A stretch of 64,000 nt of DNA from a virus: IMG/VR virus record IMGVR_UViG_3300027804_003127. The stretch is one strand, 5' to 3'. The position numbers were made by a program, and so were the translations under genes. Every line of letters begins with the position of its first letter. Position 1 is the stretch's first letter. Below, piece after piece: positions 3,141-53,722 of this stretch. The notes below the pieces were generated by a model that saw only the letters and a program-made list of their open reading frames with translations, had not been told where the DNA came from and made no database searches.

Positions 3141-4105
3141 TGGCAAAGACACCATCCCGACTTCTCAATGACATTCGCAGCGATGACCCTAATGTTCGTT
3201 ACGCTGCCGCATCTAATCCTAACGCCACTCCTGAAGTCCTCATGATTGCGATCAAGGATGAGGATGATGAAGTTCGTCGTACTGCCGCATGCAATCCTAA
3301 CGTCACTACTGAAATCCTTAATGTTGCCCTTAAGGATCAGGATTCTGAGGTTCGCTGGAACGCCGCACGGCATCCCAAAGCAACTCCCGAAATCCTTAAT
3401 GTTGCCCTTAAGGATCAGGATTCTGAGGTTCGTGGCGCTGCCGCGCTTAATCCTCACGCCACTCCTGAATTCCTTATGATTGCCATCAAGCACAAGGATG
3501 CGGGTGTTCGCTGCTATGCCGCAGAGAGTCCTAATGCCACTCTTGAAGTCCTTAAGATTGCGATCAAGGACAAGGATGCGGATGTTCGCAGCGGAGCCGC
3601 AAGCCACTCCAAAGCCACTCCCGAAATCCTTAAGATTGCGATCAAGGACAAGGATGCGGGTGTTCGTTTCGCCGCCGCAAAGCATCCCAACGCCACTCTT
3701 GAAATCATTAAGATTGCGATCAAGGACAAGGATGAGGATGTTCGTTGCTCTGTTGTGCGCAATTACAACGTCACTCCCGAAATCCTGATGATTGCCATCA
3801 AGCACAAGGATGTGGATGTTCGCTGCTTTGCCGCAGACAATCCCAACGCCACTCCTGAAATCCTTATGATTGCCATCAAGCACAAGGATGCGGGTGTTCG
3901 TTTCGCCGCCGCAAAGCATCCCAACGCCACTCTTGAAATCATTAAGATTGCGATCAAGGACAAGGACGAGGACGTTCGCTGGAGTGCCGCACGCAATCCC
4001 AACGCCACTCCTGAGATCCTTGATATTGCCATCAAGGACAAGGATGCGGATGTTCGTAAAGCTGTAGAATACAGGCTTAAGACAGCACAGAAGAAGGCAG
4101 GCTAA
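3140..4105 (+). CDS. HEAT/LRV-like repeat protein (~10 x 30 aa)
   Basis: repeat DxDVRxxAAxxPNATPEILxIAIK. Confidence 0.85.
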   Translation: MAKTPSRLLNDIRSDDPNVRYAAASNPNATPEVLMIAIKDEDDEVRRTAACNPNVTTEILNVALKDQDSEVRWNAARHPKATPEILNVALKDQDSEVRGAAALNPHATPEFLMIAIKHKDAGVRCYAAESPNATLEVLKIAIKDKDADVRSGAASHSKATPEILKIAIKDKDAGVRFAAAKHPNATLEIIKIAIKDKDEDVRCSVVRNYNVTPEILMIAIKHKDVDVRCFAADNPNATPEILMIAIKHKDAGVRFAAAKHPNATLEIIKIAIKDKDEDVRWSAARNPNATPEILDIAIKDKDADVRKAVEYRLKTAQKKAG

Positions 4106-4107
4106 AC

Positions 4108-4605
4108 ATGGCAAACAATGTATCCCAGCTTCTTCAAGACATCCGCAGCGACGATCCTAGAGTTCGCGGCGCTGCCGCAGAGCATCCCAACGCCACTCCC
4201 GAAGTCCTGATGATCGCCCTAAAGGACAAGAGTAATGAAATTCGCTGGCATGCCGCAGAGCATCCCAACGCCACTCCTGAAGTCCTGATGGTTGCCCTCA
4301 AGGACAAGGGCATTTTTGTTCGTAGCGCTGCCGCAGAGAATCCTAATGCCACTTCTGAAATCCTTAAGATTGCGATCAAAGACAAGGACGAGGATGTTCG
4401 CTGGAGTGCCGCACGCAATCCCAACGCCACTCCTGAGATCCTTGATATTGCCATCAAGGACAAGGACAAAGATGTCCGCAAGGCCGCAGAGGACAGGATC
4501 AAATCAGACCCTATCCTTGCTCTCCAGTACGCGGCATACAAGGCAGAAAAAACAAGCGTAAGTCCATTTCTTAACTGTAGTTACGATAAAAAAACGCGAT
4601 TCTGA
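4108..4605 (+). CDS. HEAT/LRV-like repeat protein (paralog)
   Basis: same 30-aa repeat. Confidence 0.85.
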   Translation: MANNVSQLLQDIRSDDPRVRGAAAEHPNATPEVLMIALKDKSNEIRWHAAEHPNATPEVLMVALKDKGIFVRSAAAENPNATSEILKIAIKDKDEDVRWSAARNPNATPEILDIAIKDKDKDVRKAAEDRIKSDPILALQYAAYKAEKTSVSPFLNCSYDKKTRF

Positions 4606-5324: not shown

Positions 5325-5768
5325 ATGAACAACATTCTTCTCATCTCCACCGCAACAGCAGCACTTCTACACTCCTCCACCACAGTAGATCCAGCAAAGC
5401 TGTTTGGAATCCACCTCAAGAACACTGAAGTAACCACACAGACAGAAACAGCAATCTCCGTTCTGTCAGACGCAAAGGCACTGAACGACTTTGAATCCGT
5501 ACTGGCAAACATGCCATCAACCGCAAAACTCGATCCACCCGCAATCACGGCAATGATCGAATCACACAAGACAAGCGCAAAGGAAAAGATCACCGAAGGC
5601 AAGACAAAGAACCAGTGGAGTCAGACAGCAGTGGGAAAGGCAATCAAGGACGCACAGCAAGAACTCCTTGACGCAAACAAGGCAACAAAAAGAGTGAAAG
5701 ACCTGGAAGACGAAGTGGAAAGGCTCAGAGACAAGATCGAAAGCATGCGAAAGCAAGGAAAGCGATAG
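5325..5768 (+). CDS. putative secreted protein
   Basis: N-terminal hydrophobic signal, C-terminal coiled coil. Confidence 0.6.
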   Translation: MNNILLISTATAALLHSSTTVDPAKLFGIHLKNTEVTTQTETAISVLSDAKALNDFESVLANMPSTAKLDPPAITAMIESHKTSAKEKITEGKTKNQWSQTAVGKAIKDAQQELLDANKATKRVKDLEDEVERLRDKIESMRKQGKR

Positions 5769-6375: not shown

Positions 6376-6399
6376 CCAGTGCTGCATCCATTATTATGT

Positions 6400-6566
6400 A
6401 ATCCCCTCGTTTTTAAACCATACAATCCCCTCGTTTTTAAACCAGACAATCCCCTAGTTTTTAACTTATGTAATCCCCTCGTTTTTAAACCATACAATCC
6501 CCTCGTTTTTAAACCAGACAATCCCCTAGTTTTTAACTTATGTAATCCCCTCGTTTTTAAACCAGA
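6400..6566. repeat. 7 x 24-bp tandem repeat (AATCCCCTMGTTTTTAA...), 72-bp higher-order period; iteron-like
   Basis: units start 6400, 6424, 6448, 6472, 6496, 6520, 6544. Confidence 0.9.
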
Positions 6567-6682
6567 GTTGCCCGCCCACTGTGAAACATAATTTTCTTAT
6601 TAGTTAACTAATGCTACACTTTGCTACACAATGCCCCACTTCTCGACACACTGCGACACGCTAATTCGCCATACTGTCTAAT

Positions 6683-8150: not shown

Positions 8151-8225
8151 GGCCCCATCGTCTAGCCTGGTCTAGGACGCCTCCCTTTCACGGAGGCAAC
8201 AGGGGTTCGAATCCCCTTGGGGTCA
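8151..8225 (+). tRNA. tRNA-Glu(UUC)
   Basis: cloverleaf; CCTCC-CT TTC AC-GGAGG; GGTTCGAATCC. Confidence 0.95.
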
Positions 8226-18732: not shown

Positions 18733-19072
18733 GGGGCTGAAAGGATTAGACTGGACGGATACTGATTGCGACTGCACGCCGAGTTTAGTGGGAACTTGTA
18801 AAACTCACTAAAACAAAAACGCCAACTCTTTTAGAATGGCTGCTTGAAAAAGCAAAGTAAGATAAGACGCATCGGTAGTCTTACTTTTAAAACAGATGCA
18901 AAACACCGCACTTTACTACCTCTCTCCAAAGGCGGTGTAGGAAATATTATAGATGAGAGGTCTGTGATGCACTCTAGTGCGATGACTGCATCACGCGGAG
19001 GGATCGCACTAAAGCGTGTAGAAGGTCCGACAGAGAAGTTTCAGCACAGGGGTTCGATTCCCCTCGGCTCCA
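18733..19072 (+). ncRNA. ssrA: tmRNA, tag ANSFRMAA (18821-18847)
   Basis: GGGGCTGA..GGATT.GAC 5' end; GGTTCGATTCCCCTCGGCTCCA 3' end; tag ends AA-stop. Confidence 0.9.
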
Positions 19073-19216
19073 TTCCCGCTCTTGCAGCAATGCAAGGGCG
19101 GGTTTTCTTTTTTTATCTTGCATTTTAGGCAATTGCCTATTTTTAATGAGTATGCTTAGCAGTTTCATGTGATTCTTTCCCGATCCTCTTTGCTACCGCA
19201 TATTGATCTCATACAA

Positions 19217-19334: not shown

Positions 19335-20106
19335 CTGAACCCTTAATGAAGGTTCAAATGAGAAAGTTCGATAATAGTATTGTACTTTCTCAAGGAGTTT
19401 CATTATGGGTAGACAAAAGTCAGTAAGAGATTTGAATGGCTATAGGGTCATCTATTTGCCAGATCATCCAAAGGCAATGAAAACAGAAAACTGGTACGGC
19501 TATGTATATGAACACATAGCCGTAGCAGAAGATTGCTTAGGAAGAATGCTGCAAGCAAATGAGATTGTCCATCACTTAGACGGTGATCGGACAAATAACA
19601 GATCCTGCAATCTTCTTGTTATCACAAGAGGAGAACATTCAAAATTGGAAAACTGGCTTGCGTGTGGTGCGCCGTCAATGAAAGTTGACGGATTGAATCG
19701 GATGAAATCAGGGAAACCTAAGTGGAAAAAAGCAGAGTATTGCAATATCTGCAACAAGACTCTTCAGAGTAAACAAAAGAACTGCTGTTCAAAAGAATGC
19801 AGCGATTTATTTTGTCGAAAAGTAACGCGCCCTTCAAAGGAAGAGTTACTTGAAGATTTGAGTTCAAAGTCGGTATTATCCATAGGCAAAAAATACGGTG
19901 TTAGTGACAATGCTGTTCGCAAATGGATGAAGCGATACGAGATCCATAAGGCAATCCTGAGCCAAGTCACCGATACATCGGTGAAAGGTGCAGAGACTAC
20001 TGGAGAGGTTTAGTCCTCTTAATAACCAGATTAGCGTCCGACACCTAAGGTCGTAAGACTAAGGTGATGATATAGTCCAAGGAGTAACGAAAGTTACACA
20101 AACTTG
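19335..20106 (+). mobile_element. group I intron in tRNA(CAU)
   Basis: AAATCAGGGAAACC (P), GCAATCCTGAGCCAA (Q), GCAGAGACTA (R), GATATAGTCC (S), terminal G. Confidence 0.85.
19405..20013 (+). CDS. intron-encoded HNH homing endonuclease
   Basis: YEHIAVAE...VHHLDGDRTNN; Zn-finger and HTH at C-terminus. Confidence 0.9.
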   Translation: MGRQKSVRDLNGYRVIYLPDHPKAMKTENWYGYVYEHIAVAEDCLGRMLQANEIVHHLDGDRTNNRSCNLLVITRGEHSKLENWLACGAPSMKVDGLNRMKSGKPKWKKAEYCNICNKTLQSKQKNCCSKECSDLFCRKVTRPSKEELLEDLSSKSVLSIGKKYGVSDNAVRKWMKRYEIHKAILSQVTDTSVKGAETTGEV

Positions 20107-26199: not shown

Positions 26200-26294
26200 A
26201 TCAGGGCGGGGGCGCAAGCCCCCGCCCCTCCTCCCGAAACCCGAAAACTGGAGCGGAGTTAGGGTGTAGGCGAAGCACAAAAAGGATCAATCAG

Positions 26295-26765
26295 ATGAAT
26301 GACGAGAACTGCGACTGGCTGAAGGAAAAGATCAATCCTGGATCAGAAATCACTCCCAATGACATTGCTTCTTGGGCTGGTGTGACTGTTGAGACTGCCA
26401 CGGTAGAGCAGCGCAAGTGGGACATGATTAGGCTCAAGTTGCGCGCCTATGTGGAGCGGTGGTTCTTTGAGCGCCACGGACATCACACTTTTGTGGAGAA
26501 CAGCGGTCTTGGCTTGCGAGTGATTGACCAATCGCAGACTGATGAAAAGAGCGATCAGTCCATTTCCTATGCGATGCGCTCTATCCGCAAGAACACTAGG
26601 ATTTGCGAGACTACTGCGGCAAAGGTGAACGACCGCAATCTGCAATCTTCTTTGCGAGACAAGGCTGCAAGACTGAAGAGCATGACAGGCACAAGTGAAT
26701 GGAAGTCTCTTCGCTCTCGCCTTTGGATGGGGCGAGATGCTTTCGGCAAGAATGACAGCAAGTAA
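26295..26765 (+). CDS. hypothetical protein co-transcribed with the Cas7-like gene
   Basis: AAAGGA RBS downstream of the 26233 motif. Confidence 0.7.
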   Translation: MNDENCDWLKEKINPGSEITPNDIASWAGVTVETATVEQRKWDMIRLKLRAYVERWFFERHGHHTFVENSGLGLRVIDQSQTDEKSDQSISYAMRSIRKNTRICETTAAKVNDRNLQSSLRDKAARLKSMTGTSEWKSLRSRLWMGRDAFGKNDSK

Positions 26766-26798
26766 ACAAAATCTCTGATCTATAAGGATAGAATCAAA

Positions 26799-27389
26799 AT
26801 GACAAACAGTCTCGACATTCGTACTCTCAACTTCGTCATCGCAGGCATTGTGCCTCTGATTACCCACAACGGGCAACTTGCCAACCATTTCAACTCTCAT
26901 ACCAAGCGGCTCAAGTCCTTGACTTCTATCAAGAGCAAGAAGGAAGAGAATCATCTTGAGATTCAGCGTGTGGAGTGGGAGGGTGGTCTTTACCTAAACA
27001 ACAAGGGAGAGCCTTGCATCCCTCTTGATGTGCTTCGTGCCACCTTCACTAATGGTGCAAAGAAGTCAAAGCACGGTCCCATCTTCAAGGCGGGCGTCTA
27101 CTTCAATAGTGATGGCGAACTGATCTACGATGGTCCTCGTACCGTTGAAGGTCTTGCAGAGCGGTTCAACGAGTTCTCTGATGTTCGACTTGTGAATGTC
27201 AATGGCAGCAAGGTTCTGCGCACTCGTCCGATCTACAATGATTGGAAGGTCAAGTTCTCCGTGGACTTCGATCCGTCAATCATTGACGAGGCAGATGTGA
27301 TCGCTGCCGTTGCCAATGCGGGTCGCACCGTTGGGATGTGCGAGATGCGCCCGACATACGGACGGTTTGTGATTGAGTCCGTGAAGTAA
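26799..27389 (+). CDS. solitary Cas7/RAMP-like protein
   Basis: IAGIVPLITHN, CIPLDVLRATF, RTRP...W, C-terminal G-rich loop GRTVGMCEMRPTYGRF. Confidence 0.7.
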   Translation: MTNSLDIRTLNFVIAGIVPLITHNGQLANHFNSHTKRLKSLTSIKSKKEENHLEIQRVEWEGGLYLNNKGEPCIPLDVLRATFTNGAKKSKHGPIFKAGVYFNSDGELIYDGPRTVEGLAERFNEFSDVRLVNVNGSKVLRTRPIYNDWKVKFSVDFDPSIIDEADVIAAVANAGRTVGMCEMRPTYGRFVIESVK

Positions 27390-27405
27390 CTTCATTGATA
27401 CTTGC

Positions 27406-27790
27406 GATCAGGTATGGCGGGATGGGGTCGGATGTGTTTTGATCGGGCAAGTTTCTTCTCTCTCATTTGGGGAACTGAATGAGAGGGATTCAAGTTGGGG
27501 TTAGGTCAGATGTGTTTAGACAAGATGTGGTGTGTTGCGATTTGTTCTGCTCTGTCGAGCAAAGCAACGGTCTGTTGGGTTTTGCTAACTCTCTCATTTG
27601 GGGAACTGAATGAGAGAGATTTTTTAGGTGCGCTAGGGTCTGTGTTAGTTTAGATCAGATTGGGTGCGGTCGGGTCTGTTTTGATCGGGCAAGTTTCTTC
27701 TCTCTCATTTGGGGAACTGAATGAGAGGGATTCAAGATTAGGCAAGGTGAGAATAGGTATGGTCTGTCACGGAATGGTCTGCTTTGCTAA
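27406..27790 (+). ncRNA. array of four phased G-N-Y-N-N pentamer tracts separated by a repeated 30-bp hairpin; putative guide-RNA array
   Basis: tracts 27406-27455, 27494-27588, 27627-27697, 27736-27790; hairpins 27458-27487, 27589-27618, 27700-27729. Confidence 0.75.
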
Positions 27791-27795
27791 TCCTA

Positions 27796-27823
27796 CCCCT
27801 GTTCTGATAACTTGGAACAGGGG
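27796..27823 (+). terminator. hairpin closing the array
   Basis: CCCCTGTTCT/GGAACAGGGG. Confidence 0.55.
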
Positions 27824-27865
27824 GCTTCCGCTCCCGAAACCCGAAAACTGGAAAGGAGTTAGGGC

Positions 27866-51408: not shown

Positions 51409-52731
51409 ATGAACTGGTATAAATGGGCGCAACCTCAAAAAAATAATTCTGACGCTTTTGTTTTCTTTGGAGCTTCTGGAGACCTTGCTTACAAGCAGAT
51501 ATTCCCAGCACTGCAGGCATTAGCGCGCAGGGGCAAGTTGAATATGCCAATCATAGGCGTTGCCAAAGACGAATGGACAACAGACAAACTACTTGATAGA
51601 GCTGAGAAAAGCATCAAGGAAAATGGAAAGATGGATTCTAAAGGCTTTGATGTACTGAAGAAAAACATGAAATATATAAGTGGCGACATAGAGGGAGAGG
51701 AGCTATATAAGAATATACGCAAGGAGATATCCCAGTCAAAATCTCCATTCTACTACCTTGCGATACCTCCATCCCTTTTTGATACCGCAGTAATGCATCT
51801 GAAGACTTCAGGATGCGCTAAAGACGGCAGAGTTGCCGTAGAGAAGCCATTTGGCGAGGACGCGGAGAGCGCGTTGAAACTCAATAAGATATTGCATGCA
51901 GTCTTCCCAGAAGAGTCTATATTCAGAATAGATCATTTTCTTGGCAAGAAGAGGGTGCAGGAGCTTATCCCATTCAGATTTAGCATGGGCATGGACAATG
52001 AAAAATGGAGCAATAAATACATTGAGCACATCCAGATTGGCATGATAGAAGATTTTGGCATAAAAGGAAGAGGGGAATTCTATGACCAGAATGGATGCAT
52101 AAGAGATGTGTTTCAGAACCACTTGATGCAGCTTGTTGGAATAATTGGAATGGAACCATTCAACAAAGACAATCCAGAGACTTTCCGTGCAGAAAAAGCA
52201 AGACTCTTCTCAAGTACTCAAGCGCTTAGACCTCAAGATGTCGTAAGAGGTCAGTTCGAGGGATACGACAAGGAAGATGGAGTGAAGAAAGGTTCACAGG
52301 TCGAGACCTATGCCGCCATAAAACTTTCTATAAATAACAAGAGATGGAAGGGAGTTCCATGGTTTGTCAGATCTGGAAAGATGATGCCCATGACGAGCAC
52401 TGAAATATTGGTAAAGTTTAAGAAAGCCGTTAAAATTCCAATTCCAGAAAATGGCAAGATGGAAGGAAATATACTCAGACTTCAGATGGAAGGAGAGGTG
52501 GACAACATGCTTACATACGAGAGATTGTTCGGCTATGCAATGAAGGGTAGTCCTACTTTTTTCTCGAGACAGGATGAGGTCAACGAGCAGTGGAGGGTTT
52601 TTGATGGAATTCTTGGCAATAAAGTTCCATGTTTAAAATATAAACCAAAGACATGGGGGCCAGATGCTGACAATACAAATGTTGTGCCACCTGGCGGATG
52701 GATTGATCCTTTGGCTGTAAAAGGAATATAA
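51409..52731 (+). CDS. zwf: glucose-6-phosphate 1-dehydrogenase with MNWYKWAQ tag
   Basis: GASGDLA, EKPFG, RIDHFLGK, RDVFQNHL, RWKGVP. Confidence 0.92.
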   Translation: MNWYKWAQPQKNNSDAFVFFGASGDLAYKQIFPALQALARRGKLNMPIIGVAKDEWTTDKLLDRAEKSIKENGKMDSKGFDVLKKNMKYISGDIEGEELYKNIRKEISQSKSPFYYLAIPPSLFDTAVMHLKTSGCAKDGRVAVEKPFGEDAESALKLNKILHAVFPEESIFRIDHFLGKKRVQELIPFRFSMGMDNEKWSNKYIEHIQIGMIEDFGIKGRGEFYDQNGCIRDVFQNHLMQLVGIIGMEPFNKDNPETFRAEKARLFSSTQALRPQDVVRGQFEGYDKEDGVKKGSQVETYAAIKLSINNKRWKGVPWFVRSGKMMPMTSTEILVKFKKAVKIPIPENGKMEGNILRLQMEGEVDNMLTYERLFGYAMKGSPTFFSRQDEVNEQWRVFDGILGNKVPCLKYKPKTWGPDADNTNVVPPGGWIDPLAVKGI

Positions 52732-52732
52732 A

Positions 52733-53722
52733 ATGAAAAACATCTTTAATATATACCAAAACTCACTCATAAAGAGCGCCGAAGGAAAACCAAAAACTAT
52801 TATTGTCACTATTGCTGGGATGATCGAGCAGAAGGACTTAGGTCCATTAAAGGCTGTCTCCGATGTTAAATATCATGAGGTTAAAAGCATATCTGAAGAT
52901 GCTCTTGCGAAGAAATGCGAGGGATATGACTATTTGATGATAAACATGGATGCGCTGCCGCTGCAAGGAAAAGTTAAGCTTTCAGACAGCTTCTATTCAA
53001 AAGATTCGGTTAAGAATTTGAAGATGATTTCAGTAGACATGACTGGAATGGACTATTTCAGTCCAGATGCTGCAGAAAAAAACGAAGTTAAACTTAAGGG
53101 CATAAGTGATTATTCCACGGAAAGTGTCGCTGAATCGGTGCTTGCAGAAGTATTGCTGCACTCTCGTCAACGCCACATGGCATATATTGATCTTGTAAAG
53201 GGGAAGAAGCAAGAGGCCCGTAAGGGAATAAATCTTCTTAATAAAACGGCTGGCATAATAGGATATGGAAACATAGGAAGCAGGGTTGGAGACCTGCTAA
53301 AAGGAATAGGAATGAACGTAATGGCTTGGGACCCTTTTCCTAAAGCTGGATTAGAGGTTCATTCAATGAAGAAGATATTTGACAAGGCCGATGTCATATG
53401 CGTTCTTGCAAAGACAATACTGGAGGGCAAAGATTCAAATGTTGATCTGGTAGATTATGAGCTAATGAAGAGATCGAATGGCGCTATACTCATAAACTTG
53501 GCCAATCCTAGTTTGGTAAGCAAGGACGGTCTTTATCGCGCAATCAAGTCAGGTGCAATATCCGCATATTCATACCAGAAGGAATATGGGTCCGACAAGA
53601 AGGACAAGATTGACTCTTTGCCAAACGTGCATGTGTGTCCACCTAACGCATGGGACTCCGACGAGTCGAGGGAAGAGCTCAAAAAGGAATGGATGAACAA
53701 TATAATACAGGATATTAAATGA
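52733..53722 (+). CDS. D-2-hydroxyacid dehydrogenase-like protein
   Basis: STESVAE, GIIGYGNIG; catalytic motifs atypical. Confidence 0.75.
   Translation: MKNIFNIYQNSLIKSAEGKPKTIIVTIAGMIEQKDLGPLKAVSDVKYHEVKSISEDALAKKCEGYDYLMINMDALPLQGKVKLSDSFYSKDSVKNLKMISVDMTGMDYFSPDAAEKNEVKLKGISDYSTESVAESVLAEVLLHSRQRHMAYIDLVKGKKQEARKGINLLNKTAGIIGYGNIGSRVGDLLKGIGMNVMAWDPFPKAGLEVHSMKKIFDKADVICVLAKTILEGKDSNVDLVDYELMKRSNGAILINLANPSLVSKDGLYRAIKSGAISAYSYQKEYGSDKKDKIDSLPNVHVCPPNAWDSDESREELKKEWMNNIIQDIK

Follow-up and report, generated by a model that had tools for sequence, protein, structure and literature searches.

VIPR (Viral Interference Programmable Repeat) systems are CRISPR (clustered regularly interspaced short palindromic repeat)-like, RNA-guided DNA silencers of phages, which first appeared in 2026 preprints (10.64898/2026.04.26.720920). 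According to the main text of that discovery preprint, the guides are made up of a G-G-Y triplet followed by two variable bases (NN), one target base is skipped for every unit, seven types are recognised, and the targets lie in rival phages and satellites, with no self-targets in the systems it describes. In the cryo-electron microscopy structures (10.64898/2026.04.26.720927) there is one protomer per repeat, G1-G2-Y3 is flipped out and the NN bases pair with DNA. The phage SUSP1 uses its VIPR against a satellite, for which it needs vap1 (10.64898/2026.10.15.759431). Here, these systems are compared with a cassette at positions 26233–27830 of IMG/VR virus record IMGVR_UViG_3300027804_003127, a stretch of 64,000 nucleotides referred to throughout as the window. 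This cassette is read as the VIPR system of a huge uncultured freshwater phage, with a candidate accessory gene, vipr and four guides in one predicted transcription unit, a reading with an estimated probability of about 0.92.

The vipr gene (26799..27389, + strand) encodes a 196-aa single-RRM RAMP protein, identified as such by its homology to SUSP1 Vipr and by its predicted fold. When all PDB chains were searched with phmmer, the sole match was SUSP1 Vipr, chain 36pp_D (E = 1.2e-17, residues 8–194 against 2–189), so the homology covers the full length of the protein. It also matches phrog_4652 in PHROGs (E = 2e-42), and a Pfam search gave no significant match. The AlphaFold (AF2) model, built on 38 homologues with a mean predicted local distance difference test score (pLDDT) of 96.4, has a RAMP fold with a single RRM core, a glycine-rich loop and a thumb. 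The R-x-R-P of the thumb and the R-P-x-x-G-R of the loop are invariant or at least 90% conserved in the family alignment. A Cas7/RAMP-like protein had been proposed in an earlier interpretation of this DNA made without database searches (the sequence-only reading), from the motifs G-x-x-P-L, I-P-x-x-x-L-R and Y-G-R-F. These are present in the translation, and the fold deduced from them is real, because the best Foldseek matches of the model are Csm3/Cas7 of type III CRISPR effectors (E about 3e-6, template modelling score about 0.5).

Csm3/Cas7 proteins have the RRM-based RAMP fold, glycine-rich loop and thumb in common with Vipr, and also polymerise on a guide RNA at a fixed step. Identity to them is only 10–15%, however, there is no CRISPR array, and the VIPR step is 5 nt with three flipped bases rather than 6 nt with one, with a gapped target. 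Tandem Repeats Finder identified no CRISPR-like repeat array in the 64-kb window, in keeping with the sequence-only reading, which had seen no canonical CRISPR. No Cas family was above threshold among the five neighbouring open reading frames (ORFs) scanned, the scan for cas genes having covered these and not every ORF of the window.

The array region begins 16 nt 3' of vipr and is ~420 nt without a credible ORF. Four tracts of tandem 5-nt units are present on the + strand, with the unit counts and positions first reported for them: 10 units at 27406–27455, 19 units at 27494–27588, 14 units at 27627–27697, one of which is 6 nt (10 clean units run from 27648), and 11 units at 27736–27790. Together with the hairpin that follows each tract, these make up vrRNA 1 (27406..27487, hairpin 27458–27487), vrRNA 2 (27494..27618, hairpin 27589–27618), vrRNA 3 (27627..27729, hairpin 27700–27729) and vrRNA 4 (27736..27823), the last ending in the terminal hairpin of the cassette (27796–27823). 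As in the type II VIPR of Escherichia phage SUSP1, which is likewise phage-encoded and without a CRISPR array, there are several guides in a row downstream of vipr, each with an invariant structured 3' tail. The 19 units of the second guide compare with the 9–16 reported.

In the 52 scored units, position 1 is G in all but one (51/52, 98%). Position 3 is a pyrimidine in 92% (T 77, C 15, A 8, G 0%), and position 2 is mixed (G 37, A 25, T 27, C 12%). Positions 4 and 5 are close to uniform, with no base above 35%, so that the free variation originally attributed to them holds. This is the SUSP1 arrangement of a constant first triplet and two variable bases in tandem 5-nt units, but with a position 2 that is not fixed as G. 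In a joint scan for G1 and Y3 over both strands of the window, long runs (60–105 nt) are found solely at this array. Two further clusters of 40 nt were seen, and shuffled windows yield clusters of this kind 1–7 times.

The three hairpins between the tracts are identical or near-identical to each other and, like the closing hairpin, lie where the sequence-only reading had put them; no further copy of them is present in the window even at 3 mismatches (0 expected by chance). Ten tails, from the window and the related loci L081, L085 and L086 and representing three phage lineages, align to a consensus fold of 13 bp closed by a GGAA or GAAA tetraloop (GNRA), in which 9 of the pairs show compensatory double changes. 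Such covariation indicates that the tail hairpin is a real RNA structure. No tail hairpin of this type follows the last tract, which runs instead into the terminal hairpin, an arrangement also seen in the relatives. In the SUSP1 clade the tail is a pseudoknot, whereas here it is a hairpin closed by a 13-bp stem and a 4-nt GNRA loop, leaving no free loop bases with which a pseudoknot could form. In L081 (5604–5632) and L085 (about 5600–5635) there is also a strong GC hairpin with a GAAA loop directly 3' of the vipr stop codon, before the first guide, which the window does not have.

Residues that contact the guide in SUSP1 Vipr, as named in 10.64898/2026.04.26.720927, were mapped by reading them off the phmmer alignment to 36pp_D. 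Of the G1 contacts, H17 corresponds to H23 and D177 to E182, a conservative change. The thumb residue R138 is kept as R143, R179 of the Y3 pocket as R184, and K33, which contacts the backbone at the skip base, as K39. H23, R143 and R184 are invariant or at least 90% conserved among the 38 homologues. The conservation of residues for G1, Y3 and the skip base is thus shared with SUSP1, but W178, which stacks on G2, is Met183 here and the residue pair that reads G2 (R138 and W178) is only half kept. It is most likely because this stacking Trp is a Met that position 2 is nearly free.

The relatives allow this to be placed in a wider context. The family loci were drawn from 80 IMG/VR loci and the contigs with the closest proteins, and 67 distinct loci had enough units to be scored, the repeat register of each being picked by its combined G-G-Y score. 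The lowest G2 fractions of the 67 are in the window (0.37), L002 (0.40) and L081 (0.43), and at the Trp178 position each of these has a Met or a Leu. The relaxed consensus suggested from the window sequence is the extreme among the loci scored. In loci with Trp, Tyr, Phe or His at this position the median G2 fraction is 0.78 (Mann-Whitney p = 0.006, uncorrected for relatedness). In the tree, the loci with Met or Leu fall into a single small group with moderate support, so that the association of residue 178 with G2 amounts to about one evolutionary event. In a separate lineage, L054 (4614–4808) has Asn at the Trp178 position and keeps the first G alone, with positions 2 and 3 free. The methods of 10.64898/2026.04.26.720920 list the alternative repeats NNNGG, YNNNG and NNNNG, and a constant triplet that is relaxed in some types is thus already part of the published description; here it is the first G and the Y that are kept and the second G that is free. 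In the notation of that preprint the repeat would be Y-N-N-G-N, which is not named in its main text, supplement aside.

Homologues of Vipr number 102 in a large protein collection, where none carries a functional source name other than one JGI label that resembles a mis-annotation. In the phage collection there are 131 matches, including those in Felix O1-like coliphages, Pseudomonas phage Medea1, and Gordonia and Mycobacterium phages; no relative of the window at the DNA level is present in that collection. The sequence-only reading had proposed looking for periodicity beside homologues, and in the homologous loci of public viral contigs the coding strand next to vipr does indeed have tracts with a G every five nucleotides. 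The gene order of the window is shared by L081, with a Vipr that is 65–67% identical, and by L085 and L001, at about 60%: a DUF4116-like gene, a small ORF, vipr, an array of four or five tracts with hairpins, and a DUF6915 gene. In a quick maximum-likelihood tree, the clade of the window (with L092, L081 and L001, and with L002 near) lies near the clade that bears vap1, on deep branches that are weak (SH-aLRT 70–85). SUSP1 differs in having a guide upstream of vipr, which the window does not. In L002, which is more distantly related and has Leu at the Trp178 position, a single tract of 11 G-N-Y-N-N units (3213–3267) without a capping hairpin lies 5' of both the DUF6915 gene and vipr; it may be a solo upstream guide.

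The best protein match in the phage database is to VIPR of the Pseudomonas fulva prophage/Medea1 type (type II), at 38% identity. The gene sizes of this type are the same as those here and its arrays are of G-G-Y/NN units. It differs in having a vap1-family gene directly 3' of vipr and a Tyr at the Trp178 position, with G2 present in 68% of Medea1 units. The phages themselves also differ, this being a huge freshwater phage and SUSP1 a Felix O1-like coliphage.

The system named in the sequence-only reading, a phage RAMP with G-G-Y/NN repeats, is therefore published and matches its description. In calling the locus a candidate CRISPR-independent RNA-guided system, that reading had the class right, but the phrase overstates the novelty since the class is already in print. 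The locus is known biology apart from its G-N-Y repeat, its plain hairpin tail, its missing or relocated vap1 and its long-conserved fourth guide. As the system has already been described, the main value of the finding is the correct annotation of a working-looking VIPR module in a huge freshwater phage.

The guides differ in how they have evolved. In guides 1–3, the best NN identity to the relatives is no more than 50% in any register. Three metagenomic contigs encoding a 99% identical Vipr stop within the first hairpin, with 99 nt in common with the window, and over these 99 nt guide 1 of this strain has a single substitution, at unit position 4. Within the window, vrRNA 1 and vrRNA 3 share a 91-nt duplicate at 89% identity, the 3' part of vrRNA 3 being a copy of vrRNA 1, and over the seven repeat units compared the differences are at unit positions 2, 4 and 5 only. 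In guide 4, by contrast with guides 1–3, the NN letters are 82–86% identical to those of the last guide of L081 and L085. Guide 4 differs from these relatives in 11–12 of the 22 sites at positions 2–3 and scarcely at all at position 1. Fisher's exact test gives p = 0.0097 for the window against L085 and p = 0.055 against L081, the two comparisons not being independent. Conservation with a 5-nt period cannot stem from protein coding, and it fits a guide whose flipped-out bases drift but whose NN bases are kept in place by a conserved target; this is the pattern that would be expected if NN carries the information. The expectation that NN would vary between relatives thus holds for guides 1–3 and fails for guide 4, where its conservation takes a form that supports the model.

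Judging from the homologous SUSP1 complex, whose structure is solved, each 5-nt unit would be occupied by a single Vipr protomer, which would flip out the constant bases at positions 1–3 and present the variable positions 4–5. The NN bases in series would then read double-stranded DNA, passing over one target base at each unit, and binding would silence transcription of a rival mobile element. The hairpins, as invariant 3' caps, would mark off one guide from the next. That the array is transcribed and processed, that a filament assembles, that this clade follows the 1-nt skip rule, that silencing results and why position 2 is relaxed are in this account all inferred.

The gapped-pattern search for targets that the sequence-only reading had called for, with skips of 0–3 in the window and an exact 1-nt skip in public collections, returned no convincing natural target. 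No self-targets for the four guides were found above shuffled-unit controls in the 64-kb window at skips of 0–3, and fifteen guides, from the window and three relatives, gave nothing beyond chance against about 725 kb of family loci, at other skip lengths too. The big collections were scanned by exact patterns only, and not at the 80% approximate level of the VIPR paper. For guide 4, which is A/T-rich, the exact 1-nt-skip pattern has one match in IMG/VR (L090, 33% GC) and one in a marine metagenome (L091), which are unrelated to each other, and it has no match in the genome collection. A degenerate guide-4 pattern made from three orthologues has 18 matches in five unrelated groups of A/T-rich contigs (26–37% GC), in all of which the skipped base is at codon position 1 and not at the wobble position. 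The GC content of the window is 47%. Going roughly by base composition and by guessed sizes for the collections, chance alone would give about as many matches as there are, and the guide-4 matches were rejected as targets.

Several observations weigh against the interpretation of the cassette as a VIPR system with a relaxed repeat. With the exact 1-nt-skip patterns, guides 1, 2 (as two halves) and 3 have 0 matches in viral contigs, the middle segment of guide 2 has 0 in the genome collection, and the matches to guide 4 are in unrelated contigs of 26–38% GC, with the skipped base of the viral-contig matches on codon position 1 and not at the wobble position. There is no vap1-family gene downstream of vipr in the window and no clear vap1, a gene that is required in vivo in SUSP1. 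The strict G-G-Y repeat, a defining feature of VIPR as first published, is not followed at position 2. As to the proposed cause, a few loci with an aromatic residue at the Trp178 position are also low in G2, and the link between residue 178 and G2, drawn from one clade and one other lineage, is a correlation and not a demonstration; it is likely but unproven.

Alternatively, the locus could be a decaying or domesticated VIPR remnant, in which vipr is intact and the array has drifted away from G-G-Y so that it no longer encodes working guides. A G2 in only 37% of units, the one 6-nt unit in tract 3 and the target searches that gave no natural target would all be in keeping with this. Drift, however, has not reached G1 (98%) or Y3 (92%), which are kept as well as in canonical loci, nor the residues that contact G1, Y3 and the skip base, which are conserved. 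Nor would it be expected that tail hairpins be identical within a phage and covary between phages, that the same relaxed pattern be found in relatives with Vipr 49–67% identical, or that guide 4 show selection on NN and not on positions 2–3. Decay is for these reasons improbable, at odds of something like one in twenty. Less probable still is a different code, with position 2 as a third programmable base giving three informative bases per unit, or with another skip length: position 2 is nearly as variable as positions 4–5 and the published 1-nt-skip rule gave no targets here, but position 2 of guide 4 changes in 6 of 11 units between relatives while its NN stays 82–86% identical, and so is not constrained as NN is, K33 at the skip base has its counterpart in K39, and the other skip lengths were also without result in the window (four guides) and in about 725 kb (fifteen guides).

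For the cassette as a VIPR system with a relaxed repeat, a more specific proposal can be made, which is tentative and given slightly less than even chances. In this proposal the Vipr of this clade would anchor the units by G1 and Y3 alone, with the loss of the G2-stacking Trp allowing position 2 to evolve freely, and the last guide would have been kept on one conserved target while Vipr diverged to about 60% identity. A natural VIPR code with a minimal anchor would be the result, and its long-lived target could be a gene of the host or a core gene of phages, as opposed to a fast-changing satellite. If a Vipr without Trp178 can indeed dispense with G2, the guide has a smaller constant part than published, and a single residue could serve to tune the protein-RNA rule. 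From the plain GNRA hairpin it would seem that a stable structure is enough for the 3' cap and that no pseudoknot is needed, and the conserved fourth guide would be a handle for finding what such phages silence. For the study or engineering of VIPR these variant features matter modestly.

The gene upstream of vipr is a 156-aa ORF (26295..26765, + strand), in the same cassette and 34 nt 5' of vipr, which is a candidate accessory (vap-like) gene. It has four close homologues only, all in related phages; it is syntenic in L081 and L085, and in L002 it is 2.7 kb from vipr. In Felix O1-like phages and the Medea1 clade there is a gene of ~150 aa 3' of vipr, which is one family across many loci. The 156-aa ORF has a weak similarity to the gene in the vap1 position of phage wV8 and to its family (blastp E = 7e-4 over about 100 residues; hhalign probability 33%, E = 4.6e-4), with a G-x-G-x-R-V motif in common. 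The model of the ORF, with a pLDDT of 75.6, has an N-terminal part of helix and beta-hairpin followed by long helices. Other searches with this ORF gave only a sub-threshold Card1-like endonuclease in Pfam (E = 0.069), nothing in PHROGs or by sequence in PDB, no Foldseek match below E = 1e-3, with faint GntR/winged-helix rows only, and generic helical bundles only in VIA-align wide (Z no more than 7.3). Where SUSP1 has vap1 downstream, then, this locus has no recognisable copy, and the marginal similarity of the upstream ORF would suggest that it may be a distant, relocated vap1. The neighbouring DUF6915 gene was also considered as an accessory gene, but it is probably unrelated to VIPR and was rejected, since large phages of Bacillus, Streptomyces and Sinorhizobium commonly have homologues of it and none of these genera appears among the named Vipr matches.

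At its 5' end the cassette begins with a GC hairpin and a 20-nt promoter-like motif (26233..26252, + strand) at the start of the transcription unit. The sequence-only reading had included this motif in the system, which does not stand. The motif, with the consensus CCCGAAWCCCGAAAACKGGA, is present in 39 co-oriented copies on the + strand between 10365 and 44912, before genes, with 0 expected by chance, and it is the standard genome-wide cassette signal of the phage, not specific to the VIPR system. The next copy, at 27833, starts the following cassette, with the terminal hairpin at 27796–27823 just before it. The same motif also occurs 3' of the VIPR arrays in the relatives L081 and L085.

That the context is viral is indicated by the 39 cassette motifs, a transfer-messenger RNA (tmRNA), tRNAs and the relatives in IMG/VR. 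At Rfam gathering thresholds, the window has a tmRNA and a group I intron (18733–19075; 19650–20099) and six tRNAs, at 8151, 12742, 23544, 23630, 28955 and 29311. Seven intergenic 24-nt direct repeats at 6394–6564 are followed by a run of 10-nt repeats at 6605–6678, and together resemble an iteron-type replication origin or a protein-binding array. The tract at 6605–6678 has a period of 5/10 on the minus strand and was considered as VIPR, but it is without Y at position 3 and is part of this iteron region, and so was rejected. At 3193–4479, long in-frame 78-nt repeats run within two adjoining ORFs and would encode a repeat protein. Genes for a glucose-6-phosphate dehydrogenase and a D-2-hydroxyacid dehydrogenase are adjacent at 51409–53722 and resemble auxiliary metabolic genes.

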